Below are positions 1 through 11,971 of a stretch of DNA of 11,971 nt, one piece after another (position 1 is the stretch's first letter; each line of letters starts with the position of its first letter). Source of the DNA: a virus. Lineage: Duplodnaviria; Heunggongvirae; Uroviricota; Caudoviricetes. Made by a program: the position numbers and the translations under genes. The stretch covers positions 1 through 11,971 of the IMG/VR virus record IMGVR_UViG_2778261454_000011. The stretch is one strand, 5' to 3'. The notes under the pieces were generated by a model that was not told the origin of the DNA, searched no databases, and was given only the letters and a program-made list of their open reading frames with translations.

Positions 1-112
1 AACTGAAGTTGCCCTGAAAATGAAATTTTTTTGCACAACCGCAGAACTTTTCCGCAGGGCATCAGTCTTAATTAGTGCCACTGCTTTTCTTTGATGTCCC
101 CATTTTGTGGAG

Positions 113-155
113 CCCATCAACCCCGCCATTTCGGTTCAAGGTTGATGGGTTTTTT
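113..155 (+). terminator. Rho-independent terminator-like hairpin (CCCATCAACC ... GGTTGATGGG followed by TTTTTT)
   Basis: A 10-bp perfect inverted repeat at 113..122 and 140..149 is followed by a T6 tract at 150..155 on the + strand. It may mark the 3' end of a flanking host transcript or sRNA just outside the prophage end. Confidence 0.4.
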
Positions 156-235
156 GTTGCCTGAAATTTATGCCTTTTAAAATCATGATGTTAGAAGCAG
201 TGTTTTTTAACGATGGCGACAAATTGGCGGCAGAG

Positions 236-454
236 TCAAAGAGAGAGCGCCACCTGTCCTGATTTCATTGGATGCGGCTGAACCGGATTTGACTCTTTTG
301 GCGTTGCAATCGAACGAACAAAAGTTTCATGGGTAACAAAAGTATGGCTGCAGTTAATGTTCTGGCACTGGTTGTAACGCTCTTTGGTCAATGAAGATAC
401 CTGAAAACTGCTGCGAGTATGGGCGGCACTTCCACACAGTGGGCAAATCATCAT
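236..454 (-). CDS. ogr: Ogr/Delta-family zinc-finger late-gene transcriptional activator
   Basis: A 72-codon ORF starts at ATG 454..452 and translates to MMICPLCGSAAH...YNQCQNINCSHTF, with the C-x2-C ... C-x4-C spacing and size of P2 Ogr. It sits at the end of the element directly downstream of the D-like ORF, as in P2. The longer track ORF starting at 487 has no homology support for its first 11 codons. Confidence 0.85.
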   Translation of the reverse strand: MMICPLCGSAAHTRSSFQVSSLTKERYNQCQNINCSHTFVTHETFVRSIATPKESNPVQPHPMKSGQVALSL

Positions 455-544
455 TTTTCGAGTTCTCCCCATTTTTGCTAAATTCACAATAATGATACCG
501 CATTATTCCATTTTGAAAACTTAAAAGTTCTCCATTGCGAAGAA

Positions 545-1162
545 TCATTCAATTTCGAAATCATCAATCTTCACTTCAAGCTCCAGACTGGTCGTAAAAC
601 CGTTATCCGGGCTGACAGTATGCGTCAGGGTGGTAATGGTCCATTCCGCATCATCTATCGGCTGTTTAAAGCCACTGACCTTCACAGGCATTTCCGTGTA
701 GAGATCTGCCCGACCTTCTGCCAGTTGTAGCGAGAATGACGCAACGCCGCGTTGCAGGCGTTCCCACTGCATTTTCGCCGCTCGTTCGGCGTTGCTCCGG
801 TTGGCATAAGTGCGATTAAGTACCAGCACGTTTTCATCCGTACCCACCAGGTAATCGCCCTGCTTCGCTTCCGGCTCTTTCTTCTGCTTCTTAGTCCTGC
901 GCTTACGCTTCACCGTGGTGCTTTCTTTCTTCTCGGGTTCCAGATTGCCGCCCAGACTCAGCAGCACCACCTGCTCACCTTCCGATGGTCGCCACCATGT
1001 GCGGGCATTACCCGCGCGCAGCGTCAGCCAGTTAATCCAGTTGGTTTCAAGGTCGCCCGTTTTCACCCGACAAAGCCAGTGTTCCCGGTCCACTTCGGTG
1101 ACTACACCAGTGCGGATCAGGTTGGTGATAAGGCGCATGATTTCGGTTAATTGTGCGTTCAT
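545..1162 (-). CDS. Chimeric tail ORF: baseplate spike gpV N-terminal domain fused to a probable late control gene D C-terminal fragment
   Basis: The N-terminal ~75 aa (LIRTGVVTEVD...CRVKTGDLETNWINWLTLRAGNARTWWRPSEGEQVVLLSLGGNLE) match the gpV N-terminal domain of P2 as recalled. The rest follows a K/R-rich linker and does not resemble the gpV C-terminus. Its position immediately upstream of ogr is where the 3' end of D lies in P2. At 205 aa it is far too short for an intact D. Confidence 0.55.
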   Translation of the reverse strand: MNAQLTEIMRLITNLIRTGVVTEVDREHWLCRVKTGDLETNWINWLTLRAGNARTWWRPSEGEQVVLLSLGGNLEPEKKESTTVKRKRRTKKQKKEPEAKQGDYLVGTDENVLVLNRTYANRSNAERAAKMQWERLQRGVASFSLQLAEGRADLYTEMPVKVSGFKQPIDDAEWTITTLTHTVSPDNGFTTSLELEVKIDDFEIE

Positions 1163-1262
1163 AATTTAATCATGCCGAGATAAGATTGATAAAAAAACTC
1201 TTTAGTTTTGTGCCAGTTATGATACAAAGTGCATTTACTCATGGACTAAATAAAGGATTCCT

Positions 1263-2522
1263 ATGTTTAGATTATCTAGTGTCAAGATTGAAGGTTTTTG
1301 GGGAAGACTAAATGCATCATGTTCATTTAATGAAGATGTAAATATTATTATTGGTCGAAATGGGACCGGTAAAACAACCTTTATGAATATTCTTCACTCA
1401 GTTCTGGCATTAGAACTCGAATCACTAAATGAGAATAGTTTTGATAATGTAACAATAAAAATAAAAGAAGGAAGCAAAACTAAAACAATAAAAGTTGTGA
1501 GTAAATTTGACATAACTAAAGCTTTGCCTACGTTTGAATATACAATTTCTAGAAAGAAATATATTATCAGATCCTTTGAAGATCGTAGACTACCTATATA
1601 TATGAGGAGAAAATATCAGGAAGACGTTGAAAAACTTAAGTTAGAGTTAGATAAATTAGTTGCTTTATCTTCTCTATCAGTTTACCGACTTAGAAGCGGT
1701 GAAGATTTTGAAATCAGAGACAAATATGGCTCAAAATTAATCAACCCTGTTGATTACCGATTAGAACAATTATTGCAGAACCTAACAAAATATCAACTTT
1801 ATTTATCACAAAGAGCTCGTGATGTTTCTGCAATATTACAGAAAGAGGTTCTTGCTTCTATTCTTTATAGTAAAGAAGATGGTATCGATGACACATTTAA
1901 CTTTTCTTTTGATAAAGAAAAAGAACGTAGAAATTTAATAGCTGCATATTCTCAGCTTGGAGCTTTTGATAGTGATGTCAGAAAGAAGATTAACTTTCAC
2001 GTTGAATCTATTGCCAATACATTTGAAGAATTACGACTTGCAGAAAAAAATAACAGAAATATTTTAAATGTAGATTACAGATCATTTGAGGCATTACGAA
2101 AGACGCAAAGAATTATAAAGATGTCTTTAAAATCCGAGGAGAAAATAAAAAACATATTTCTTCCTATAAATCTATTTTTAGAAACATTACATGAGTTCAT
2201 AACCGATAAAAAATTTAATTTTATCTCCGGTGAGTTAGTAATAGAAAATGAGCATGGGCCGATTAGCCATAGTAATTTATCGTCTGGTGAAAAACAGCTA
2301 TTAATTCTTTTTATTGAAACTTTGCTACAGCAAAACAAACCTTTCATCTATCTTACTGATGAACCAGAATTATCGCTACATATTGCATGGCAACGAAAAA
2401 TAATACCTGCAATCAAACAACTTAATCCTAATGCGCAAATTATCGCCGCTACGCATTCACCAGAAGTGGCTTCTAAATATCGAAATGCAATCTTTGATAT
2501 GGAGAAATTGGTTCATGGATGA
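1263..2522 (+). CDS. ariA: ABC-type / AAA_15-AAA_21 family ATPase, PARIS AriA-like
   Basis: A 419-aa ORF with an AAGGA ribosome-binding site 7 nt upstream. It carries Walker A GRNGTGKTT (K37), an ABC-signature-like LSSGEKQ, Walker B FIYLTDEPELSLH and an H-loop AATHSPE. The region is strongly AT-rich compared with the flanking phage genes. Its stop overlaps the start of the next gene (ATGGATGA). Confidence 0.7.
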   Translation: MFRLSSVKIEGFWGRLNASCSFNEDVNIIIGRNGTGKTTFMNILHSVLALELESLNENSFDNVTIKIKEGSKTKTIKVVSKFDITKALPTFEYTISRKKYIIRSFEDRRLPIYMRRKYQEDVEKLKLELDKLVALSSLSVYRLRSGEDFEIRDKYGSKLINPVDYRLEQLLQNLTKYQLYLSQRARDVSAILQKEVLASILYSKEDGIDDTFNFSFDKEKERRNLIAAYSQLGAFDSDVRKKINFHVESIANTFEELRLAEKNNRNILNVDYRSFEALRKTQRIIKMSLKSEEKIKNIFLPINLFLETLHEFITDKKFNFISGELVIENEHGPISHSNLSSGEKQLLILFIETLLQQNKPFIYLTDEPELSLHIAWQRKIIPAIKQLNPNAQIIAATHSPEVASKYRNAIFDMEKLVHG

Positions 2523-3366
2523 TTTCCATTATTCTGCCGAAGCAGAAAATGTAATGAATTTATTTTACCAAGCTGAAGCCATGGTTTATGTTGAAGGCCC
2601 AGATGATATTTGCTTTTGGGAAATCATCTTTAATAAAGCTAGTTCATTAAAGGTTGAAATCAAAGATGTTGGCGGCTGTGAAGAATTAAAAAAATATATT
2701 GATAGAGTTACTGATGAAGATCTTCAAATTATAATTGCATGTGATGCAGACTTCACTACATTTGAAAATGAGGAAAACGCTGATAGTCGTATTGTAAAAA
2801 CTTATGGGCACTCCATCGAAAACACGTTTATTGACAAAACAGGCATATATAAGGCAATAAAAACTCTCGGAAAATTACCTCAAAAGATAATGAACGATGT
2901 CAACGTCGATTCTTGGACAGAAGACTTTTATACCAAAATGGACCCCCTAATAAAACTTGATATATACAATCATATTTATAGAAAAGGCATTTCAGTTATT
3001 GGTGACAGTGCAGATCGTTTCATGAAATCTAGAAAATCAAATGAAATTTGCGAGCAAAAAATCACGAGTTACAAAAACACCATCATTGAAAAATTAGGTG
3101 TGGAATCAGATAACATCGATTCATCTTTCAAATCAAAATCGATAGAATACAGAAAGTGGCTTAGAGGTCATTTTCTATTTTCTGCAGTACATAGGTACAT
3201 TAGCACAACTGCAGAAAAAAATGGAAAAAAAGTATCCTTATCATATGAATCATTATATTCCAATTTAATGAATACATTTGAATCCAATTTTACCAATACT
3301 CATATTGAGTTTAATCATTACCACGAAAAAATTAAAGCCATAAATATGCCACACGAAATGAAATAA
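2515..3366 (+). CDS. ariB: DUF4435 / TOPRIM-like nuclease partner, PARIS AriB-like
   Basis: A 283-aa ORF starting at ATG 2515 with a GGAG 7 nt upstream, overlapping the ariA stop by 8 nt. Conserved acidic motifs VYVEGPDD (E27), IIACDADF (D-x-D) and YGHSIEN fit a TOPRIM-type catalytic core. It has the same AT-rich composition as the ATPase gene. Confidence 0.65.
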   Translation: MDDFHYSAEAENVMNLFYQAEAMVYVEGPDDICFWEIIFNKASSLKVEIKDVGGCEELKKYIDRVTDEDLQIIIACDADFTTFENEENADSRIVKTYGHSIENTFIDKTGIYKAIKTLGKLPQKIMNDVNVDSWTEDFYTKMDPLIKLDIYNHIYRKGISVIGDSADRFMKSRKSNEICEQKITSYKNTIIEKLGVESDNIDSSFKSKSIEYRKWLRGHFLFSAVHRYISTTAEKNGKKVSLSYESLYSNLMNTFESNFTNTHIEFNHYHEKIKAINMPHEMK

Positions 3367-3367
3367 G

Positions 3368-3390
3368 AAAAAATACAGATGTATTTTTAT
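3368..3390. terminator. AT-rich hairpin between convergent ariB and gene S, possible bidirectional terminator
   Basis: AAAAATACA..TGTATTTTT inverted repeat lying between the ariB stop (3366) and the S stop (3392). The stem is A/T only, so it is weak. Confidence 0.25.
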
Positions 3391-3391
3391 A

Positions 3392-3838
3392 TTATTTAGA
3401 TAACCATTCAAATAGGGTATCCTTGATTTGATAATATTCTTTATCGTGGATACCCAATAGCTTACGCTCTGCGTAACGGACCTCAGGTCCTTTGCGACTG
3501 ACGCGATCACGCAGGCCGTAGTGATGAACGCGGGCAATGCGCTGCACCTTGCCTTCAAACTGCACGCTGGCAGAATCGGCGCTGGCGGCAGTTTTCAGGT
3601 ATTTTGTGGTGCGCAGCTTCGCAAACATCTGACGTTTGATGCGCCCCTTTTTGCTGCGTGCTGTTACTCTGCGCGGCTCATAACTGCTGCCATCTGGATT
3701 GCGCTGCATCCTGATGTTCTGCTGCTGTGTCCGGCGCAGTTCCTGCGCCAGCTGGCGCATCATGCGGCTTCTGGCGGCTGGCTCCAGATTCGCCAGCAAG
3801 GCACTCAGCCAGTCGTCCACTTTCTGCAGTTCAGCCAC
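3392..3838 (-). CDS. S: Phage tail completion protein S (P2 gpS family)
   Basis: A 148-aa ORF, MAELQKVDDWLSALLANLEPAARSRMMRQLAQELRRTQQQ..., matching the P2-like gpS virion morphogenesis family. It overlaps the upstream R gene by 8 nt, as in P2. Confidence 0.8.
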   Translation of the reverse strand: MAELQKVDDWLSALLANLEPAARSRMMRQLAQELRRTQQQNIRMQRNPDGSSYEPRRVTARSKKGRIKRQMFAKLRTTKYLKTAASADSASVQFEGKVQRIARVHHYGLRDRVSRKGPEVRYAERKLLGIHDKEYYQIKDTLFEWLSK

Positions 3839-4262
3839 GTTTTACCGTCCACATTTCTTCAGGTTCATCGGGTTCCGCTACCGCTTCAACACTCGACACA
3901 CTGCCGTCAGTGCTGACAAGCACACGCTCCGTCAGTTGCAGGTTCAGGCTGATATCACAGACATCGTTGCGCAGAATATCCACCTCAAAGGTGAATAGTT
4001 TTTCCCGTAACGTCGGGTTATTGATGGCATCAGGCTGGTTATCCCGCAGCCACAGCAAAACCGGGGCCATCAGCAGATTCTGGTCGCCGCTGAAATCCTC
4101 AATCACCACGTTCAGGGTGTAGCGGTACTCCCATGACATGGAGCTGGTCCCCGTGGCAACCAGCGAACCGTTATCCACAAACAGATGCAGTTTGTCCGGG
4201 TTATTGCGGACATAAGGCACCGCTTTATTGAGGGCGCGGCGCAGGGATTGTGGTTTGTTCAC
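3831..4262 (-). CDS. R: Phage tail completion protein R (P2 gpR family)
   Basis: The translation ...KPQSLRRALNKAVPYVRNNPDKLHLFVDNGS...LLWLRDNQPD... aligns with P2 gpR. The start is set at GTG 4262..4260, which is preceded by AGGAG with 7-nt spacing and matches where P2 gpR begins. The track ORF extends to a TTG at 4283. Confidence 0.75.
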   Translation of the reverse strand: MNKPQSLRRALNKAVPYVRNNPDKLHLFVDNGSLVATGTSSMSWEYRYTLNVVIEDFSGDQNLLMAPVLLWLRDNQPDAINNPTLREKLFTFEVDILRNDVCDISLNLQLTERVLVSTDGSVSSVEAVAEPDEPEEMWTVKRG

Positions 4263-4515
4263 TGTTTCGCTCCTGACACGCAATAATCATGTCCACTTTG
4301 TCTGCACAGGCCGCCCAGGCGGCCTCCGTTTCGTCCAGCAACGCGTTCAGATCACCGTTAGTGTGCGGCGCCGCCTGATCCAACCGACACGGCGTCACTC
4401 GCGGACAACCACTGACGGTAAGCTGCACCTCCGGTGAGTGTCGGACGTTTCCGCAGCCGGATAATGTCAGCAGGCAAAGGAGTATCAGCCCAGCGGCGTA
4501 AATCCTCGTTCTCAC
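4225..4515 (-). CDS. lysC: Outer-membrane spanin lipoprotein (LysC / Rz1-like)
   Basis: The ORF lies in an alternative frame overlapping the 3' part of lysB and the start of R. Its N-terminus MRTRIYAAGLILLCLLTLSGC has a signal peptide and an L-S-G-C lipobox. The GTG start is uncertain. Confidence 0.55.
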   Translation of the reverse strand: MRTRIYAAGLILLCLLTLSGCGNVRHSPEVQLTVSGCPRVTPCRLDQAAPHTNGDLNALLDETEAAWAACADKVDMIIACQERNSEQTTIPAPRPQ

Positions 4516-4786
4516 GTTTCAGTTCCTCGATCCGGTGTTGTCGTTGTCTCAGCAGCGCGCTGGTCTGTTCTGCTTCGGCATAGAGCCGCGCCTGCTCCCG
4601 GTTATTGGTTTCAGTCAGAATGGACAGGCTGATAAGCTGGCTGTTGCTCTTTGCCAGTGCCTGGCTTTTGCTCTGCAGCTCGTCTGCCTGCGTGCTGATG
4701 GTCTGGCTGGCATCAGCCAGCCGCCACGTCTGCCAGCCCAGCACCGCCAGTAATAACGCCAGCATAACCAGCAGCAACCGGTTCAT
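4358..4786 (-). CDS. lysB: Inner-membrane spanin (LysB / Rz-like)
   Basis: A 142-aa ORF with an N-terminal transmembrane segment (MNRLLLVMLALLLAVLGWQTW) followed by a Q/E/R-rich coiled-coil-like region. Its ATG overlaps the lysA stop. Size and position match P2 lysB. Confidence 0.7.
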   Translation of the reverse strand: MNRLLLVMLALLLAVLGWQTWRLADASQTISTQADELQSKSQALAKSNSQLISLSILTETNNREQARLYAEAEQTSALLRQRQHRIEELKRENEDLRRWADTPLPADIIRLRKRPTLTGGAAYRQWLSASDAVSVGSGGAAH

Positions 4787-5160
4787 GCTGCTACCTGTTG
4801 CGCCATCTGATTACGGGTGATCCAGAAGGCAATAACGGTCAGCAGATAAAAGACCAGGGTAATAGCCCACCCCGTCCAGGCGAGACTGACGACAATCAGC
4901 ACTCGCATCACCCAGCTGATAAATACGTTTTCTTTTCGGGTAATTGTCTTCAGCAAAGATGCCCTCAACTCCTGCCAGAGCGAGCCATTCTTAATTAACG
5001 CAGCCAGTGCTACCGGAATTACCGCCCATGTCAGTAAACAGGCTACCCAAACGCCGGACGCTGCCAGTACCGGAAAAATCCCCTGCGGATACACCATTGC
5101 TGCAATTAACAGCGCCATCCATAACATCAGAAACAGCCCGCTGATTAATTTCTTTTTCAT
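4783..5160 (-). CDS. lysA: Membrane protein LysA-like (lysis timing accessory)
   Basis: A 125-aa ORF starting at ATG 5160..5158 (MKKKLISGLFLMLWMALLIAA...) with several hydrophobic helices, lying immediately upstream of lysB. The longer track ORF to 5310 is a read-through extension antisense to the terminase fragment. Confidence 0.6.
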   Translation of the reverse strand: MKKKLISGLFLMLWMALLIAAMVYPQGIFPVLAASGVWVACLLTWAVIPVALAALIKNGSLWQELRASLLKTITRKENVFISWVMRVLIVVSLAWTGWAITLVFYLLTVIAFWITRNQMAQQVAA

Positions 5161-5179
5161 TTCAGTTTGCTCCCTGTAA

Positions 5180-6388
5180 ACACCAGGCCATCTCCCGCGC
5201 ACGGCGGTTAAGGCACAGGCCCACGTCTTTAAGCAGTACATCATCGACTTCGCCAAAGAAGTGGAGGTGGAGCTGAAAGGCGATCCGATGGTGCTTCCCA
5301 ACGGGGCCACGCTTTACTTCCTCGGCACCAATGCCCGCACGGCCCAGAGTTACCACGGCAACCTGTATCTGGATGAATATTTCTGGATACCGAAATTCCA
5401 GGAGCTGCGCAAAGTGGCTTCCGGTATGGCTATTCACAAAAAATGGCGACAAACCTATTTTTCCACGCCATCCAGCCTGACACACAGTGCTTATCCGTTC
5501 TGGTCCGGTGCGCTGTTCAACCGTGGGCGCAACAAAGCCGATAAGGTGGACATCGACCTGTCCCACAGCAATCTGGCCCCCGGCCTGCTGTGCGCAGACG
5601 GGCAATACCGCCAGATAGTCACCGTGGAAGATGCGGTGCGCGGCGGCTGTAACCTGTTCGACCTTGACCAGTTGCGCATGGAGTACAGCCCGGACGAATA
5701 CCAGAACCTGCTGATGTGCGAGTTTGTGGACGATCTCGCGTCCGTGTTCCCGCTCAGCGAGCTGCAGGCGTGCATGGTAGACAGCTGGGAAGTCTGGACT
5801 GACTTTCATGCACTGGCCCTGCGCCCGTTTGGCTGGCGCGAAGTATGGATCGGTTATGACCCGGCGAAAGGTACGCAGAATGGCGACAGCGCCGGATGCG
5901 TGGTGGTGGCACCGCCAGCCGTGCCGGGCGGCAAGTTCCGCATTCTTGAGCGTCACCAGTGGCGCGGAATGGACTTTCGCGCCCAGGCTGACGCCATCAA
6001 AAACCTGACCGAACAGTACAACGTGACCTACATCGGCATCGACTCGACAGGTGTCGGCCACGGGGTTTACGAGAACGTGAAAGCGTTTTTTCCAGCCGTC
6101 CGGGAGTTTGTCTACAACCCCAACGTTAAAAACGCCCTGGTACTCAAGGCCTACGACATTATCAGTCACCGCCGTCTGGAGTTTGACGCCGGACACACCG
6201 ACATAGCGCAGTCATTTATGGCAATCCGTCGCGCCACCACCGCCAGCGGCAACCGCCCGACCTATGAAGCCAGCCGCAGCGAAGAAGCCAGCCATGCCGA
6301 TCTGGCCTGGGCAACCATGCACGCACTGTTTAACGAACCGCTGCAGGGCGAGTCCGCCAATACCAGCAATATTGTGGAGATTTTTTGA
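5180..6388 (+). pseudogene. P: Terminase large (ATPase) subunit gpP, N-terminally truncated fragment
   Basis: The open frame begins just after a stop at 5177..5179 with no start codon. Its translation (...KAQAHVFKQYIIDFAKEVEVELKGDPMVLPNGATLYFLGTNARTAQSYHGNLYLDEYFWIPKF...) matches the central and C-terminal parts of P2-type terminase P. About 400 aa remain against roughly 590 for intact P, and the fragment abuts lysA on the opposite strand with about 20 bp between them. Confidence 0.7.
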
Positions 6389-7413
6389 TGGGAAAGAGTA
6401 AGAAAAAACGCGCTGCGGCGACGAATCAGATCCAGCATAAAAACCAAACTTCAGCCGAAGCATTCAGCTTCGGTGATCCCGTTCCTGTTCTGGACCGCCG
6501 CGAACTGCTGGACTATGTGGAATGCGTACAGATGGATCGTTGGTATGAGCCGCCTGTGAGTTTCGACGGACTGGCGCGAACCTTCCGCGCCGCCGTGCAT
6601 CACAGCTCACCGATTGCAGTGAAGTGCAACATTCTGACCAGCACCTACATCCCTCACCCGCTGCTCAGCCAGCAGGCTTTTTCGCGTTTTGTGCAGGACT
6701 ATCTGGTTTTTGGTAACGCCTACCTGGAGAAACGCACGAACCGCTTCGGTGAAGTTATCGCCCTTGAGCCTGCACTGGCAAAATACACCCGACGCGGGTT
6801 AGACCTGGATACCTACTGGTTTGTGCAATACGGTATGACAACCCAGCCGTATCAGTTCACGAAAGGCAGCATCTTTCATCTGATGGAACCCGATATCAAC
6901 CAGGAGATCTACGGCCTGCCCGGTTATCTTTCTGCCATTCCGTCAGCTCTGCTCAACGAGTCCGCCACGCTGTTCCGACGCAAATATTATATTAATGGCA
7001 GCCATGCAGGATTCATAATGTACATGACCGATGCCGCTCAGAACCAGGAGGATGTGAACAACCTCCGCAACGCGATGAAAAGCGCCAAAGGGCCAGGCAA
7101 CTTCCGCAACCTGTTTATGTACTCGCCTAACGGCAAAAAAGACGGGCTTCAGATCATCCCATTGTCAGAAGTCGCGGCGAAGGATGAGTTTTTGAATATC
7201 AAAAATGTTAGTCGCGATGACATGATGGCGGCACACCGCGTGCCGCCGCAGATGATGGGGATTATGCCTAATAATGTTGGGGGATTTGGGGATGTGGAGA
7301 AGGCAAGCAAAGTGTTTGTGCGGAATGAGTTAATGCCATTGCAAAAGAATTTTGAATCACTGAATAACTGGGCTGGAAAAGAAATTATTTCATTTAATGA
7401 CTACTGTTTTTAA
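6388..7413 (+). CDS. Q: Portal (capsid) protein gpQ
   Basis: A 341-aa ORF starting at ATG 6388 with GGAGA 8 nt upstream, overlapping the P stop (TGATG). Size and position downstream of P match P2 portal Q. Confidence 0.75.
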   Translation: MGKSKKKRAAATNQIQHKNQTSAEAFSFGDPVPVLDRRELLDYVECVQMDRWYEPPVSFDGLARTFRAAVHHSSPIAVKCNILTSTYIPHPLLSQQAFSRFVQDYLVFGNAYLEKRTNRFGEVIALEPALAKYTRRGLDLDTYWFVQYGMTTQPYQFTKGSIFHLMEPDINQEIYGLPGYLSAIPSALLNESATLFRRKYYINGSHAGFIMYMTDAAQNQEDVNNLRNAMKSAKGPGNFRNLFMYSPNGKKDGLQIIPLSEVAAKDEFLNIKNVSRDDMMAAHRVPPQMMGIMPNNVGGFGDVEKASKVFVRNELMPLQKNFESLNNWAGKEIISFNDYCF

Positions 7414-7442
7414 GAAAATGCGCATGGAAATTTTCATGCGCA
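7411..7442 (-). terminator. Rho-independent terminator hairpin downstream of the RT gene
   Basis: An 8-bp stem TGCGCATG (7419..7426) pairs with CATGCGCA (7435..7442) around an 8-nt loop. On the - strand it is followed by TTTTCTT. It lies between the convergent Q and RT genes. Confidence 0.45.
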
Positions 7443-7448
7443 CACACG

Positions 7449-8378
7449 TTATTCTGATACTTCAGGTTGATATCTCTGGATTTCATCAATCAGCTCTGAT
7501 GAATATTTCGCACAAAGCCTATTAATAAATAATGGCTCAACACTTTTGCAATACGATAAATATCCTTGAAGAAATAGCCTTTTCTTCTCATCAAGAGCCT
7601 CCCATTTAAAAATAAGCGATTTAACCATCCTTTTTTTATCTCTCCCTAAGGATACTCCACCATCTGTTGTCAAAGTCACACCCGTAACCATCATTTTATT
7701 TTTCTTTGACATATGCAGTGTCTTTTTTCTATTAATCCATAGTTTTGATGGGTATTTTAAAGTTTTTAAATTCGAGCGTAAAAAAGGTGGTATTTGCTTC
7801 AATACATTTTCTTCGTTTGTTGAGAAGTACATATCATCAGCATAGCGTGTATATGTTACACCTTTTGAAAGACAAAATTCATTCAATATATGATCTAATT
7901 CATAGCATATAGCATTGCTTACCACAGGGGAACTAACAGCACCCATAGTCAGTCTCCCGTTAAAGCATACTATTTTTACCAGCAAATCAGTATCATCCTT
8001 TGACCAATCATCACTGAAGAAATGCTTGTTGTCGTTTATAAATCTCTCAACATCACTTTTCTTAATTGAATCAAAAAAACCTTCAAAGTCCATCTTAAGC
8101 ATAAAACGTTTAGCTTTGTGAATGCTTGCATGTTTGAACACTGATGAACCCTGCTGATATGCTACAGCATTTGGATGAATCGGCAATTTCGACAGAACAT
8201 TATCATGAAGTAATCTCTGCAAAACTTTTAATTCTTTAGAGGGCTGATAGACGATTCTTGTCCCACCGCCTTTTTTAGGTACAGAAAATTTACCATAATG
8301 CGAGTTAGCATCATTTGCAACTTTTAATATAAAATCAGCTTCTAACAGTAAAACTTTAGCTAGATACTCAATTAACAT
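7449..8378 (-). CDS. Retron-type reverse transcriptase
   Basis: A 309-aa ORF with RT motifs: IVYQPSKELKVLQ (finger region), KMDFEGFFDSI (motif A), YTRYADDMYFS (Y-x-D-D catalytic motif C) and a VTG triplet (MMVTGVTL) typical of retron RTs. Its ATG lies 1 nt after the stop of the upstream ORF. Confidence 0.8.
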   Translation of the reverse strand: MLIEYLAKVLLLEADFILKVANDANSHYGKFSVPKKGGGTRIVYQPSKELKVLQRLLHDNVLSKLPIHPNAVAYQQGSSVFKHASIHKAKRFMLKMDFEGFFDSIKKSDVERFINDNKHFFSDDWSKDDTDLLVKIVCFNGRLTMGAVSSPVVSNAICYELDHILNEFCLSKGVTYTRYADDMYFSTNEENVLKQIPPFLRSNLKTLKYPSKLWINRKKTLHMSKKNKMMVTGVTLTTDGGVSLGRDKKRMVKSLIFKWEALDEKKRLFLQGYLSYCKSVEPLFINRLCAKYSSELIDEIQRYQPEVSE

Positions 8379-8379
8379 A

Positions 8380-8622
8380 TCACATGATCCTTTCTAATTC
8401 TGCTTTGAATTTAGATATCATTATTAAATCGGATAATGATCTAGCTCTACTTCGTTGAATACTTTCAACTAAATCTTTCATCTTTTCATGATTAAAAAAT
8501 TTAATATAATCGACACATGAATAATGGGTCACGCCCTCAAATCGACTTTCCTTAAAAATCCCAAGAGCAACTCCAATAGAAACAATAAATGAAATATTTT
8601 TATTAATTTTATAATTTATCAA
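8380..8622 (-). CDS. Small ORF in frame with the upstream effector ORF (possible C-terminal effector fragment with a hydrophobic segment)
   Basis: An 80-codon ORF with a TTG start. It is in the same reading frame as 8665..9432 and separated from it by 14 sense codons and a single TAA. It contains the hydrophobic stretch ISFIVSIGVALGIF. Confidence 0.35.
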   Translation of the reverse strand: MINYKINKNISFIVSIGVALGIFKESRFEGVTHYSCVDYIKFFNHEKMKDLVESIQRSRARSLSDLIMISKFKAELERIM

Positions 8623-8664
8623 CCTGCCTGTGATATTAAATATCTCAGGAATTGTTATTGTACA

Positions 8665-9432
8665 TTAAGAAGATATAAGAACGAGAACAATAAATAATAT
8701 TATTTTTGGTGATTTTTTGTAATCTCCTATTGAATTTGTATTAGTTATGTTTGATTGAACTTTCCTATTTAGCCTTTCATTTATTTTAGGCATACACGTT
8801 AAAATTGTCTCAAATTCAGTATAGATTGTAGGGCCAAATTTGGATTCACTATCAACCCATTTTACGGGCCCTGTATTGATAAATGACTTATGACTTTCAA
8901 ACTTTTTATCTAATATAGGAAGAAGTTTTTTACGTAAAACAGGACTTAATGAAAATGCGCCCAATTCAGCTACAGTGCCATAACTCTCTACGAGAATAAT
9001 TACCACATCAGAAAAATCCGCAAGCCATTCTTCAAGTGATAACGCATTCACATTACTATGAGTTCCTAAATTGCTAATTACTTCCCATGCTAATTCTGCT
9101 CGAAAAGTAACAAATTCTTTATGATGCTTAGCAATATATTTTTCCAGCACCCCTCTATTTGAACAATAAGTCTCATCTCCTCCACAAATAAATAATACTT
9201 TTGGCAGGATATAATTAAAAGAATTCAAGTTACTTGGAAAAAAACTTGAAATAAAATTTTCTTTTGCTCGTAAATATCTAGGATGTTTAAACCACATAAC
9301 AATTAATGCCCATACAAGAGTTCCCGAGACACAAGTTAGCCTGGTGTCTATAAATGACACAAGGCTAACTTGTGTCGAGATACCAAGCAATCCATACGAG
9401 TTGGCTAAACACCAACCACTAGAAAGTAACAT
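8665..9432 (-). CDS. Retron effector candidate with a nucleoside 2-deoxyribosyltransferase-like (NDT-like) domain
   Basis: A 255-aa ORF carrying ...KVLFICGGDE... and ...VVIILVESYGTVAELGAFS..., which resemble the NDT-family motifs including the D/E-x-G-T-x-x-E-L-G catalytic region. The ATG at 9432 is preceded by AGGAAAG. It ends in a hydrophobic tail (KIILFIVLVLISS) followed by TAA. The start codon is uncertain. Confidence 0.55.
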   Translation of the reverse strand: MLLSSGWCLANSYGLLGISTQVSLVSFIDTRLTCVSGTLVWALIVMWFKHPRYLRAKENFISSFFPSNLNSFNYILPKVLFICGGDETYCSNRGVLEKYIAKHHKEFVTFRAELAWEVISNLGTHSNVNALSLEEWLADFSDVVIILVESYGTVAELGAFSLSPVLRKKLLPILDKKFESHKSFINTGPVKWVDSESKFGPTIYTEFETILTCMPKINERLNRKVQSNITNTNSIGDYKKSPKIILFIVLVLISS

Positions 9433-9455
9433 ATTGAATGTACTTTCCTGCTAAG

Positions 9456-9700
9456 GGCACAGCTAGGCTAGCACTAACATACGGATTATTCAAGTGAATG
9501 CAGCTCAGCGCGCGCTCGTATCCCCGCCACGCCTGCCCGCTTTATGTAGTGGTTTTCATGCAGGTGCATGATCTACGCAAAAGCCCGCCAGTTCTGGCGG
9601 GCCTTAGCAAAAACGATCCTCAAACGATCATGCAATCTCATGCAGCATAGACATGCACAGACGAGTAAAGCGAATCGGACTTTACGCAAGGTGAACTCCT
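9456..9700 (-). ncRNA. Candidate retron non-coding RNA (msr-msd) region
   Basis: A non-coding stretch upstream of the effector and RT operon that is dense in nested inverted repeats: TGCATGATC / GATCATGCA arms (about 9558..9660) enclose a GCCCGCCAG-N4-CTGGCGGGC hairpin (9584..9605), and a 12-bp palindrome CAGCGCGCGCTG lies near 9506..9517. An 8-9 bp inverted pair TGCTAAGG / CCTTAGCA near 9604..9612 and 9456..9464 could be a1/a2-like flanking repeats. The boundaries are not defined. Confidence 0.35.
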
Positions 9701-9874
9701 CAGCGGGTATAATCAGTATGTCGGAAAATCTCTAAAAATAAATAATTCGGTTAACAGGTATGCTTACAAAAGCATATATTTGATTAAAAATCATGTAAGG
9801 GGGAGGATCTCAAACTGAATCGCCACGGTTTTACAAATTTCGATAGTCTCTCTAACGTTTCGGCTGAGGTCAAA

Positions 9875-10300
9875 ATGAAAAGCTTTTACGTATTAATTTT
9901 AATTCTGGTTGCAAGCTTTGTTAGCGTCCCAGTTCAGGCGGTAACAGCTAAAAACTATGAGAAAGGAACTAAAGCTCAACAGAAATCAATATCTTACCTT
10001 TCATGTGCATTCTATGGCAGTAGCACACAATTAGATCCTAGCTACACGGGGCAAGTACCTACAGCCGATATCAAGATATTACAGAAAGCAGCTTACCACG
10101 CTTACAACGATGCGCTCTCATACTTTGGCTATGAGGAACCAGATCACGAACAACGCATAATTGATTATGCTGAATTTGTGGCGTCGCAAGAAGCTGTGTT
10201 ATGGGATAAGCCGGGAATGAATGGAAAGCAGGTAACACTAATTGCTCGTTCTCTCTACAATGAGAGTAACTGTAACTTGTTACTGGACTCAATTAAGTAG
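9875..10300 (+). CDS. Secreted or periplasmic protein of unknown function (signal peptide)
   Basis: A 141-aa ORF with GAGG 6 nt upstream of the ATG. The N-terminus MKSFYVLILILVASFVSVPVQA-VTA is a typical Sec signal peptide with an A-x-A cleavage site. I recognise no family for the mature part. Confidence 0.6.
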   Translation: MKSFYVLILILVASFVSVPVQAVTAKNYEKGTKAQQKSISYLSCAFYGSSTQLDPSYTGQVPTADIKILQKAAYHAYNDALSYFGYEEPDHEQRIIDYAEFVASQEAVLWDKPGMNGKQVTLIARSLYNESNCNLLLDSIK

Positions 10301-10459
10301 GAAAAAGATGGTATTTTGCCCGTAGTTTCAACCTTAATCTCCGAACCTGTCGCAGAACGGGCATTCACTCATCAAATAAACGCCACACCTAACGCCTCAC
10401 TGTACTCGTTGTTCAACCTTGCTGACGCCAGAACCAAGTTCAGACGCCAGCAACTTTTC

Positions 10460-10693
10460 TTAATGCAGCCAGCTGTCGTCTTCCCACACCTTCTGCATAA
10501 TTTTCATCACTTGTTTTCTTTCTTCGTCCAGTTGCAGTCCGGTCAGTTCCACACCGTTAGAGCTACCTTTGCGGATGCGAATTACCGTTTTGGGATACAG
10601 GGGGCGCAGATTGCGGTAAAGCTCTGATTCAAGGGCGTCCAGGGTAGACTGGCTAATCTTCTGCTCTTTATCGATCATTATTTCAATGCGCAT
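10460..10693 (-). CDS. dinI: DinI-family protein (SOS-associated RecA modulator homolog)
   Basis: A 77-aa ORF from ATG 10693..10691 with GAGGTG 6 nt upstream. The translation MRIEIMIDKEQKISQSTLDALESELYRNL...VMKIMQKVWEDDSWL aligns along its length with E. coli DinI (MRIEVTIAKTSPLPAGAIDALAGELSRRI...ILQETWESADDW). The track ORF start at 10765 is an unsupported extension. Confidence 0.75.
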   Translation of the reverse strand: MRIEIMIDKEQKISQSTLDALESELYRNLRPLYPKTVIRIRKGSSNGVELTGLQLDEERKQVMKIMQKVWEDDSWLH

Positions 10694-10703
10694 AAAAGTC
10701 ACC

Positions 10704-10892
10704 TCAACTGATGACGTCCATTGAGCGGTTGTATTCGTGAGTTCTGATTTTTGCCATGAGTTCATCAGTCAACTCAGAAACCCACTGCAGAGCCAGCCCC
10801 TTCTCTTCATCACTACACTCACTAGCCGCTACAAGCTTAAGAAAAAAATCAATGCGCTGGAGCTTCAAAGACTCCAAAAAATAGTCCTGCAT
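10704..10892 (-). CDS. Hypothetical 62-aa protein, first gene of a LexA-box-controlled operon
   Basis: A strong AGGAGG 4 nt upstream of ATG 10892. It ends 11 nt before the dinI-like start and lies directly downstream of the LexA boxes. No family was recognised. Confidence 0.5.
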   Translation of the reverse strand: MQDYFLESLKLQRIDFFLKLVAASECSDEEKGLALQWVSELTDELMAKIRTHEYNRSMDVIS

Positions 10893-10917
10893 CTTTCCTC
10901 CTATGACACCAAAACAA

Positions 10918-10950
10918 TACTGTATATATAATCACTGTTTATATTTACAG
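10918..10950. promoter_or_regulatory. LexA (SOS) operator: one consensus box plus an overlapping half-site
   Basis: CTGTTTATATTTACAG at 10935..10950 is a perfect CTGT-N8-ACAG SOS box with an AT-rich spacer. An overlapping TACTGTATATATAA left half-site lies at 10918..10931. Both sit in an AT-rich promoter-like region upstream of the orf62 and dinI-like genes on the - strand. Confidence 0.65.
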
Positions 10951-11212
10951 TATATAATAATCTTACTGATGTAAAACGTTTTTTTACGTTCATCAGCCTG
11001 ATATACCTGGTATTATTAAGAGCACGAATTGTTAACCCGCGTAATTAATACAGCTCCCGCCACTTATCATCTTCCTGCAAACGCTGGTTCCGATAGAAGA
11101 TACGCAGGCCTGCTCCTGACGGAATACTGCCGCCGCGAAGGAGTAAATCGACTTCTTTCTCGCTGCCATCAAATCCTCTGGACTTCAGTTCATAGACGAG
11201 CTGCTGTCGCTG

Positions 11213-11971
11213 ATGGTCTGTAATCCCCTTGCAACCGATCTCACATCTAAAATGTTTGCCCATTATCGAGATAAACGACTGACAGGTGAGATCTACTTCA
11301 GCGAGAAATGGAAGAAAGGGGCCAGCCCGGTCACCATTAACCTGGAGCAAAGCTATCTAAGTAGTGTTTTTAGCGAACTATCCCGCCTGGGCGAATGGTC
11401 GTATCCAAACCCACTGGAGAACATGCGAAAATTCACCATCGCAGAAAAAGAGATGGCATGGCTTACCCATGAGCAGATTGTTGAACTGCTGGATGATTGC
11501 AAACGTCAGGACCCAATTCTGGCACTGGTAGTCAAGATATGCTTAAGCACAGGCGCACGCTGGCGAGAAGCAATAAACCTTACCCGCTCACAGGTGACCA
11601 AATACCGAATTACCTTTGTCAGAACGAAGGGGAAGAAAAACAGAAGCATCCCTATCAGTAAAGAGCTTTACGAAGAGATCATGGCGCTCGATGGGTTCAA
11701 TTTCTTCACAGACTGCTATTTTCAATTTTTATCCGTGATGGAAAAAACGTCTATCGTGCTCCCTCGCGGTCAACTGACACACGTTCTGCGCCATACGTTT
11801 GCGGCGCATTTTATGATGTCGGGTGGAAATATCCTTGCTTTGCAAAAAATCCTCGGACATCACGACATAAAAATGACTATGCGTTACGCACATCTAGCAC
11901 CGGATCACCTGGAAACTGCATTACGGTTTAATCCGCTGGCAACACTACCAACATCAATAGCAAGTTTTTGA
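11213..11971 (+). CDS. int: Tyrosine recombinase / P2-type integrase, catalytic C-terminal part (N-terminus missing or frameshifted)
   Basis: The translation contains the catalytic signature of tyrosine recombinases: ...[11 protein letters not shown]... (Arg), ...[17 protein letters not shown]... (His-x-x-Arg), ...[15 protein letters not shown] (His, Tyr). It aligns with the C-terminal roughly 240 aa of P2 Int as recalled. The frame has an in-frame stop at 11144 and no arm-binding N-terminal domain. It runs to the window end at a TGA. Confidence 0.75.

Follow-up and report, generated by a model that had tools for sequence, protein, structure and literature searches.

A defective P2-like prophage at the rybB locus

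The window analysed here, a stretch of 11,971 nucleotides (positions 1 to 11,971 of IMG/VR record IMGVR_UViG_2778261454_000011), is 100% identical to contig NODD01000017.1 of the draft genome GCA_002518125.1 and holds a P2-like (Peduoviridae-type) prophage of Escherichia coli integrated at the 3' end of the small RNA (sRNA) gene rybB. Sequence comparisons indicate that this is very probably a defective prophage, inherited vertically at the rybB site, in which three deletions have left two defence systems, a PARIS-type AriA/AriB pair and a retron. Pfam matches, the P2 reference map and a collinear full-length prophage with annotation together give the gene order of P2: ogr-D ... V-(slot)-S-R-lysCBA ... 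P-Q-(slot)-cos ... A ... int.

The left end of the element is marked by the host rybB sRNA together with attL (80..171, plus strand; rybB itself 80-158), identified by an Rfam RybB match of 105 bits and by comparison with the empty site. The att core, ATGGGTTTTTTGTT, occupies positions 145-158 and coincides with the rybB terminator, with imperfect att similarity continuing to about position 171; a three-way comparison finds the same core in attL, attR and the empty site attB. In prophage-free genomes the match to the window stops at position 171, with rcdA starting 3 bp further on. The first phage gene is ogr (236..454, minus strand), which encodes an intact late-gene activator of 72 amino acids (aa) (Pfam Ogr_Delta, E = 6.7e-22) identical to WP_000972391.1 of intact prophages and to the BL21 copy. 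At the opposite end, int is represented by a 3' fragment (11225..11971, plus strand) that covers residues 95-343 in an alignment to the 343-aa int of the E. coli EC21Z-063 prophage and retains a Pfam Phage_integrase match; codons 1-94 are gone, and with them the N-terminal arm-binding part and the promoter. The original prediction, made from the window sequence, had placed both prophage ends within about 12 kb. Both ogr and an int fragment are indeed there, but int is truncated as described and attR lies outside the window, about 450 bp past its right end.

Three deletions at short microhomologies

As a reference we used the full-length prophage of EC21Z-063, which occupies the same chromosomal site and shares 99.8% identity. 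On this prophage the window maps as four collinear segments, and segment mapping together with the junction sequences places exactly three junctions (J1 to J3), where at least three internal deletion junctions had been predicted. J1 (940/941) corresponds to a loss of 12,320 bp at a 3-bp microhomology (TTC) and removes the 5' part of D, U, T, E, FII, FI, the invertase, the tail fibres, I, J, W and the 3' part of V, that is, nearly all tail genes. J2 (5210/5211; 4,717 bp; 2-bp microhomology TA) removes most of the endolysin gene K, holin Y, X, L, M, N, O, the pO/pP promoters and codons 1-~196 of terminase P, while J3 (11224/11225; 6,263 bp; 3-bp microhomology AAT) removes most of A, dam, the early operon, a CII-like gene, an apl/cox-like gene, CI and codons 1-94 of int. 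Megablast of the window against 5,426 complete E. coli genomes returned no collinear copy; in about 1,105 of these genomes ogr stands beside rybB.

In all, an ancestral element of ~35.6 kb has been reduced to a remnant of ~12.3 kb. With 23.3 kb missing relative to EC21Z-063, the gene set of a functional prophage is incomplete: A, CI, the cox-like gene, O, N, M, L, Y, K, FI, FII, T, U, W, J, I and H are absent, and P, D, V and int are truncated. The predicted loss of structural, lytic and replication functions is borne out in the disappearance of tail, capsid, holin/endolysin and replication genes, and extends to the immunity switch. The replication endonuclease gene A is reduced to its last ~59 codons (11045..11224, minus strand, by comparison with EC21Z-063). 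Because the P2 reference map places the ori nick site 427 bp upstream of the A stop and only 180 bp of A are kept, the replication origin is presumably lost too.

These features suggest a course in which illegitimate deletions at 2-3 bp microhomologies would have shrunk the ~35.6-kb ancestor to ~12.3 kb. The ancestor would have borne accessory genes in two known slots, AriA/AriB between S and V and a St85/Sen2-type retron between cos and the portal gene. The remnant, from which the immunity repressor is gone as well, should be unable to excise, replicate, form particles or lyse the cell, and would be passed on vertically in a clonal lineage.

The deletions are shared across strains

Proteins that depend on the junctions were traced by exact sequence look-up in NCBI and Logan assemblies. 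A V'-'D fusion protein created by J1 was found on 7 contigs, a junction-specific 252-aa int open reading frame (ORF) on 8, and a truncated 373-aa terminase on 7, the last only together with J1 and J3. At least five samples (GCA_002518125.1, GCA_964205775.1, SRR31598950, SRR31598949 and SRR3993847) carry the full set of three junctions. The junction proteins always co-occur at the same site, with host flanks collinear on both sides, and the look-up via these proteins found no intermediates carrying one or two of the three deletions. Outside one patch, discussed below, the sibling copies differ from the window by 0-2 single-nucleotide polymorphisms (SNPs) over 15-20 kb, and both SNPs lie outside the cargo.

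The recurrence of the same junctions in at least five independent assemblies argues that the deletions are a lineage trait and not a product of misassembly. The source is a draft assembly with one suspicious local patch, and the junctions might accordingly be read as assembly joins between fragments of a normal prophage, within a misassembled or chimeric contig. Such joins would have to recur identically in at least five independently assembled NCBI and Logan samples, between collinear host flanks and with neither intermediate nor alternative joins found, which makes this explanation hardly credible. The original prediction had proposed comparing strains for shared deletions, and had named a misassembled or chimeric window, or frequent disruption of the cargo in close relatives, as grounds for abandoning it; the three junctions co-occur in at least five independent assemblies, and both defence systems are undisrupted in the sibling strains.

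Inheritance of the remnant looks vertical because it occupies a single site in near-identical backgrounds. The same junctions, between near-identical flanks, recur in at least five samples; with int truncated and cox, A and ori absent, this indicates an element that has lost its mobility. An alternative is that the remnant behaves as a satellite-like element, which a P2-like helper could excise and package, so spreading the defence genes. The ~12.3-kb remnant is close in size to P4 (11.6 kb), both att sites are present, and a cos-like site is retained. Cos-dependent packaging is common to P2 and P4 (PMC9122126). The cos-like site, GGCGTGGCGGGGATACGAG (9515..9533, minus strand), was found by local alignment to the joined P2 cos ends, after a direct search for the 19-mer of P2 cos, allowing up to 3 mismatches, had found nothing; 13 of its 19 cohesive-end bases are identical to P2, both flanks are conserved, and the surrounding block (9503-9658) is conserved in many P2-like phages. 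Against a satellite stand the lack of a replication gene, origin and cox, the truncation of int, the absence among the ORFs of helper-subversion genes of the sid/psu/delta type, and the single chromosomal site in near-identical backgrounds. Of the features of P4-like satellites only cos and an Ogr/Delta-family gene were found, with no primase or replication gene of its own and no sid, psu or delta genes. We consider helper-mediated spread very improbable, and the vertically inherited remnant remains our reading in what follows.

A PARIS-type AriA/AriB pair and a retron occupy the two slots

Both cargo modules are AT-rich, as predicted, with 29-35% GC compared with 50-60% in the backbone. The slot between S and V holds ariA (1263..2522, plus strand), which encodes an intact 419-aa ABC/AAA_15 ATPase (PADLOC AriA, E = 5.8e-40; Pfam AAA_21 and AAA_15), and ariB (2515..3366, plus strand), which overlaps ariA by 8 bp and encodes an intact 283-aa DUF4435/TOPRIM nuclease partner (Pfam DUF4435, E = 5.7e-26; PADLOC AriB, E = 7.7e-25). 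The translation of AriA contains Walker A, signature and Walker B motifs (GRNGTGKT, LSSGEKQ and LTDEPE), and that of AriB a TOPRIM-type E...DxD pattern. AriA matches the Protein Data Bank (PDB) AriA structure 8UX9 with E = 1.3e-16 over AriA's C-terminal third. The exact AriA protein is present in 276 index blocks, nearly always in full-length P2-like prophages and at the S-V position.

AriB carries one substitution, E143D (codon 2941-2943), that occurs only in the mini-prophage lineage, the residue being E in 9 of the 9 full-length prophage copies examined. The cargo proteins differ from their counterparts in intact prophages solely by E143D and the cluster of changes in the retron effector described below, and the ATPase/TOPRIM pair, predicted to be intact, is full-length in both members. 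The pair shares the domain architecture and operon layout (ABC ATPase followed by DUF4435/TOPRIM) of PARIS from E. coli B185 but is distant from it in sequence (AriA, E = 1e-16; AriB, no match). By analogy with that system, the AriA ATPase would restrain the TOPRIM nuclease AriB; once a phage anti-restriction protein triggered its release, tRNA would be cleaved and infection would abort.

The retron can be assigned to the slot between cos and Q because the cos-like site lies immediately beyond it at 9515-9533. Its reverse transcriptase (RT; 7449..8378, minus strand) is an intact protein of 309 aa with a YADD motif, matched by NCBIfam retron_St85_RT (325.8 bits; cutoff 235) and PADLOC RT_II-A (E = 5.8e-105) as well as by retron RTs in the PDB; in sequence it is closer to the solved type I-A RTs than to Ec86. 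Upstream lies the gene for the effector, a toxin of the NDT-like STM3845/RcaT family (8380..9297, minus strand). In the window this gene carries a stop at 8665-8667, while the sibling allele is full-length and matches NCBIfam STM3845_fam (177.9 bits; cutoff 100) and PADLOC NDT_II-A (E = 1.4e-53). Pectobacterium and Yersinia homologues, which start right after a stop codon, set the true start at 9297 (MWFKHP). The database annotation, which begins at 9432, is 45 codons too early; since the homologues show the start at MWFKHP, it reads through the msd, and its extra codons overlie the msd hairpin.

The non-coding RNA of the retron (msr-msd; 9307..9460, minus strand) was delimited by folding and homologue comparison, and Rfam gave no match for it. 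The RNA is closed by an a2/a1 stem; its branching G follows CCCTTAG, msr forms two hairpins and msd one long hairpin. The fold has a z-score of -4.9, and a consensus across four species, with the Pectobacterium, Yersinia and Amphritea homologues, shows compensatory changes in 12 of 42 pairs. The RNA is identical to the intact-prophage copy. The same retron is found in Klebsiella phage 4LV2017, where its upstream (RNA) part and the neighbouring cos segment match at 95.7% nucleotide identity. Its order of RNA, toxin and RT is that of retron-Sen2 (St85, Salmonella), which likewise has msr-msd, an RcaT-family toxin and an RT in this order, although its sequences are distant from those of the window. 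By analogy, the RT and the multicopy single-stranded DNA (msDNA) would act as antitoxin to the NDT-like toxin, a system expected to be functional in the sibling strains, with the toxin truncated here.

A substitution cluster interrupts the retron toxin gene as assembled

The patch in which the window departs from its siblings lies within the effector gene and comprises 14 substitutions in 86 bp (8640-8725), all of them transversions and with zero indels (A:T>T:A ten times, G:C>T:A three times and G:C>C:G once). It turns TTA into TAA at 8665-8667, so that the toxin loses its last 95 residues, and further brings 7 missense and 4 synonymous codon changes. A full-length NDT-like effector is therefore not encoded in the window, while sibling strains have the full gene. 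The prediction of an intact retron holds for the RT and the non-coding RNA but not for the effector, whose stop belongs to a cluster found in no other copy.

Several properties of the cluster lead us to favour an artefact of the draft assembly, which would probably account for both the substitutions and the stop. The allele is confined to a single assembly, GCA_002518125.1; it consists of transversions only, without indels; and it overlaps the lowest-GC 100 bp of the window (20% GC). Sample SRR3993847, in the Logan assemblies, is identical over 16.2 kb elsewhere; at 13 of the 14 sites it has the normal allele, and its contigs break at 8722/8726, which suggests that poor reads bridged a gap in coverage.

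These same properties argue against taking the cluster at face value, in which case the retron would be dead in this strain, PARIS would be its sole working defence, and the prediction of intact cargo would be half wrong. The given sequence does contain the TAA at 8665-8667 and the accompanying missense and synonymous codon changes, and ~16 kb of the same contig is otherwise free of oddities. Premature stops in the homologous toxin of retron-Sen2 abolish its activity, and D296 near its C-terminus is critical (bioRxiv 10.1101/2020.06.22.160168), so the retron as written would be defence-dead. With the allele in one draft assembly only, 14 of 14 changes being transversions, the cluster sitting on the lowest-GC stretch, and SRR3993847 otherwise identical yet normal at 13 sites and broken at the cluster, we regard a dead retron as possible but doubtful.

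Should the cluster be real, it might have arisen in one localised 'mutation shower', a single event that would have knocked out the toxin, although we think this unlikely. Thirteen of the 14 changes convert a purine to T on either strand, as expected for abasic-site bypass, and the rest of the locus is identical to the sibling copies; such a shower could conceivably be linked to an N-glycosidase-like toxin or to retron-derived single-stranded DNA.

Other origins of the cluster were considered and fared worse. A small inversion was rejected, as reverse-complementing the patch gives at least 51 mismatches. For gene conversion from another allele, neither megablast nor blastn found a better-matching donor among the 5,426 complete E. 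coli genomes. Adenine mutagenesis of the kind associated with diversity-generating retroelements (DGRs) was rejected in view of the lack of a template repeat, the presence of A-to-T changes only and the five non-A sites. The mutant allele creates a local 14-nt AT palindrome, and no convincing nearby template for quasi-palindrome mutation was found.

Was the cargo kept by selection?

The original prediction described a remnant retaining mainly defence cargo, which the host had kept while the phage decayed. Miniaturisation by three shared deletions and the survival of cargo and regulators stand, whereas the role given to selection is on weaker ground, and 'mainly' overstates the case, with ~5.6 kb of the 12.3 kb (~45%) still phage backbone (the V'-'D fusion, S, R, lysC/B/A, the terminase fragment, portal, A' and int'). 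We infer from the sequences that the defence systems may be expressed and protective and may have survived by selection rather than by chance; selection as the cause of cargo survival is plausible but unproven. In a null model, three deletions of the observed sizes were placed at random in the 35.6-kb prophage over 200,000 trials. Both cargo modules were spared in 1.2% of trials, and in 0.8% when ogr was included.

Several observations weigh against this interpretation or against parts of it. The inference of selection is drawn from one post-hoc pattern. With 0-2 SNPs over 15-20 kb, the lineage is too young for a comparison of how well cargo and backbone are conserved. The portal gene, S, R and lysA/B/C are no less intact than the cargo. 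PARIS is gone from at least four further copies that decayed independently (GF31, GCA_043236985.1, GCA_053151415.1 and E300010). The retron toxin gene carries the stop described above, AriA is no more than a distant relative of the solved AriA, and for AriB no match was found in the PDB at the sequence level.

Counts of cargo retention are themselves biased when contexts are looked up via RT or AriA, as these look-ups are ascertained on the cargo itself; retention of the retron in the four decayed copies is by construction, because they were found through the RT. Look-up via the gene for a 141-aa protein outside the two modules returned only intact-looking contexts within 6-kb flanks, GF31 excepted. 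At least four further, independent paths of decay are seen for this retron-bearing prophage, one of them (E300010) with an IS100 insertion beside the retron.

Much of this evidence would also fit a neutral and recent decay, in which the deletions occurred by chance or were favoured for the loss of lysis and replication genes, and the cargo is a passenger not yet hit. The youth of the lineage, the equal integrity of the backbone genes between the cargo modules and the loss of PARIS in independent remnants of the same prophage all fit this view, as do the survival of edge genes (ogr and int') in many remnants by simple geometry and the choice of the window for its pattern. It is less easily reconciled with the random model (~1.2% for both modules, 0.8% with ogr), with a parallel three-deletion remnant in BL21(DE3) that also spares both variable slots, and with the conservation of defence genes in defective P2 elements reported in the available text of a published survey (PMC13586616). 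We rate neutral decay as a serious contender, a little short of an even chance.

Comparison with known P2-like remnants

The closest known counterpart is the cryptic P2-like prophage of E. coli B/BL21(DE3), the source of Ec86 (Retron-Eco1), which sits at the same ybjL/rybB-adjacent site and has an identical ogr protein. It likewise has three internal deletions, hitting D, the endolysin-capsid block and gene A, and it too has kept an orf62-dinI pair, an occupied S-V slot and, by the portal gene, a St85-family retron. It differs in its ~20-kb length and in still having CI, complete terminase and int genes, and genes for tail fibres and baseplate. In its retron, Ec86, the RNA lies between effector and RT, and its S-V slot holds a DUF6216 gene and no PARIS; the backbone is 89-98% identical to the window. 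A shorter relative is the K-12 cryptic prophage PR-X (ogrK and yegZ), a P2 remnant beside the sRNA gene cyaR in which ogr and a C-terminal fragment of D reproduce the layout of window positions 236-940; unlike the window, it is cargo-free and only 629 bp of it are left. The BL21 Ec86 prophage is an earlier stage, and K-12 PR-X the end stage, of the same decay path.

Left breakpoints in four independent deletions of rybB-site P2-like prophages all fall in the 3' part of D (equivalent positions 846, 940, 947 and 1245), those of the window and BL21 being 7 bp apart, and K-12 PR-X likewise retains ogr and a D fragment. This clustering could be due to edge geometry, a breakpoint hotspot or selection for ogr.

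The pattern of prophage decay with defence genes kept has already been published, and BL21(DE3) supplies an analogue at the same site. In the text available of Moura de Sousa et al. (NAR 2026, PMC13586616), defence genes in defective P2-like elements are near-identical to those in intact ones, hotspots are described at gpA-gpQ, in the tail region and at int-att, and domestication is left open by the authors; the cos-proximal defence hotspot of P2, which is the slot that the retron occupies here, was described by Rousset et al. 2022 (PMC9122126). The elements covered there likewise carry defence genes in the gpA-gpQ/cos slot and in the tail-gene region. Both studies work at survey level, and in the portions available a 12.3-kb element with three deletions, its junctions and its lineage were not found described. 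With the phenomenon already documented, the present case adds detail and no new principle, the anatomy of the element, its junctions, their sharing across strains and the family assignments being established here.

That detail nevertheless makes it a base-resolved case of the passage from a temperate phage to a fixed chromosomal defence island, with the intact ancestor, the junctions and decayed sister copies all to hand. Because these are available, the rybB-site P2 family offers a natural series in which to ask whether defence cargo outlives its phage. On sequence grounds, the parts of the remnant that may still be able to act are PARIS, the retron (in the sibling strains), ogr and a LexA-controlled dinI-like operon.

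Retained backbone genes and regulators

J1 joins V and D in frame, giving an ORF of 205 aa (545..1162, minus strand) that fuses the N-terminus of gpV to the C-terminus of gpD (Pfam Phage_base_V and Phage_GPD). The region of the Ogr-dependent late promoter pV now reads through this chimeric ORF towards ogr (ORF and promoter region together, 545-1262), and a self-activating loop from pV through V'-'D to ogr is possible. A TGT-N12-ACA dyad at 1209..1226 (plus strand), found by pattern match at the position of the P2 pV activator site, is a candidate Ogr-binding site of pV, although the three matches to this pattern in the window equal the chance expectation; by analogy with P2 it may be a retained Ogr site, in which case the pV-V'-'D-ogr arrangement would have been kept.

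Between PARIS and J2 lies a backbone block running from S to the end of K (3392..5210, minus strand), assigned from Pfam, the EC21Z-063 annotation and the NCBIfam DNZ54_00345 family. It comprises gpS (3392-3838), gpR (3831-4262), lysC (4225-4473), lysB (4358-4786), a lysA-like gene (4783-5160) and the last ~16 codons of the endolysin gene K (5162-5210), all on the minus strand. Beyond J2, a 3' fragment of terminase P extends to 6388 and is followed by an intact portal gene Q (6388-7413), together forming a plus-strand block (5211..7413; Pfam Terminase_6N/6C and Phage_portal) whose proteins are identical to those in intact prophages.

To the right of cos, the plus-strand gene at 9875..10300 encodes the 141-aa protein mentioned above, which has an N-terminal signal peptide and matches phrog_7437 (unknown function; E = 1.5e-98), with no match in Pfam, PADLOC or NCBIfam. 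Its presence in 906 index blocks, beside many different cargo sets, marks it on sequence grounds as a common accessory gene of this P2 subgroup and not as swapped cargo. It is followed by a minus-strand SOS module (10460..10950) made up of a dinI-like gene (10460-10693; Pfam DinI, E = 1.3e-22), orf62 (10704-10892) and a LexA box (10935-10950). The box, CTGTTTATATTTACAG, has 0 mismatches in a pattern search and lies ~40 bp upstream of orf62-dinI. Like ogr, the orf62-dinI operon and the 141-aa protein do not differ from their counterparts in intact prophages, and with the perfect LexA box the predicted integrity of ogr, the SOS module and the secreted protein is confirmed.

The P2-like phages considered here integrate in the terminators of sRNA genes, at rybB in this lineage and in BL21 and at cyaR in K-12, with the terminator rebuilt from phage sequence. 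Between int and attR, ~60-330 bp to the right of the window end, is an ORF of 89 aa without a family match, and this int-att position is a recently described minor defence hotspot of P2.

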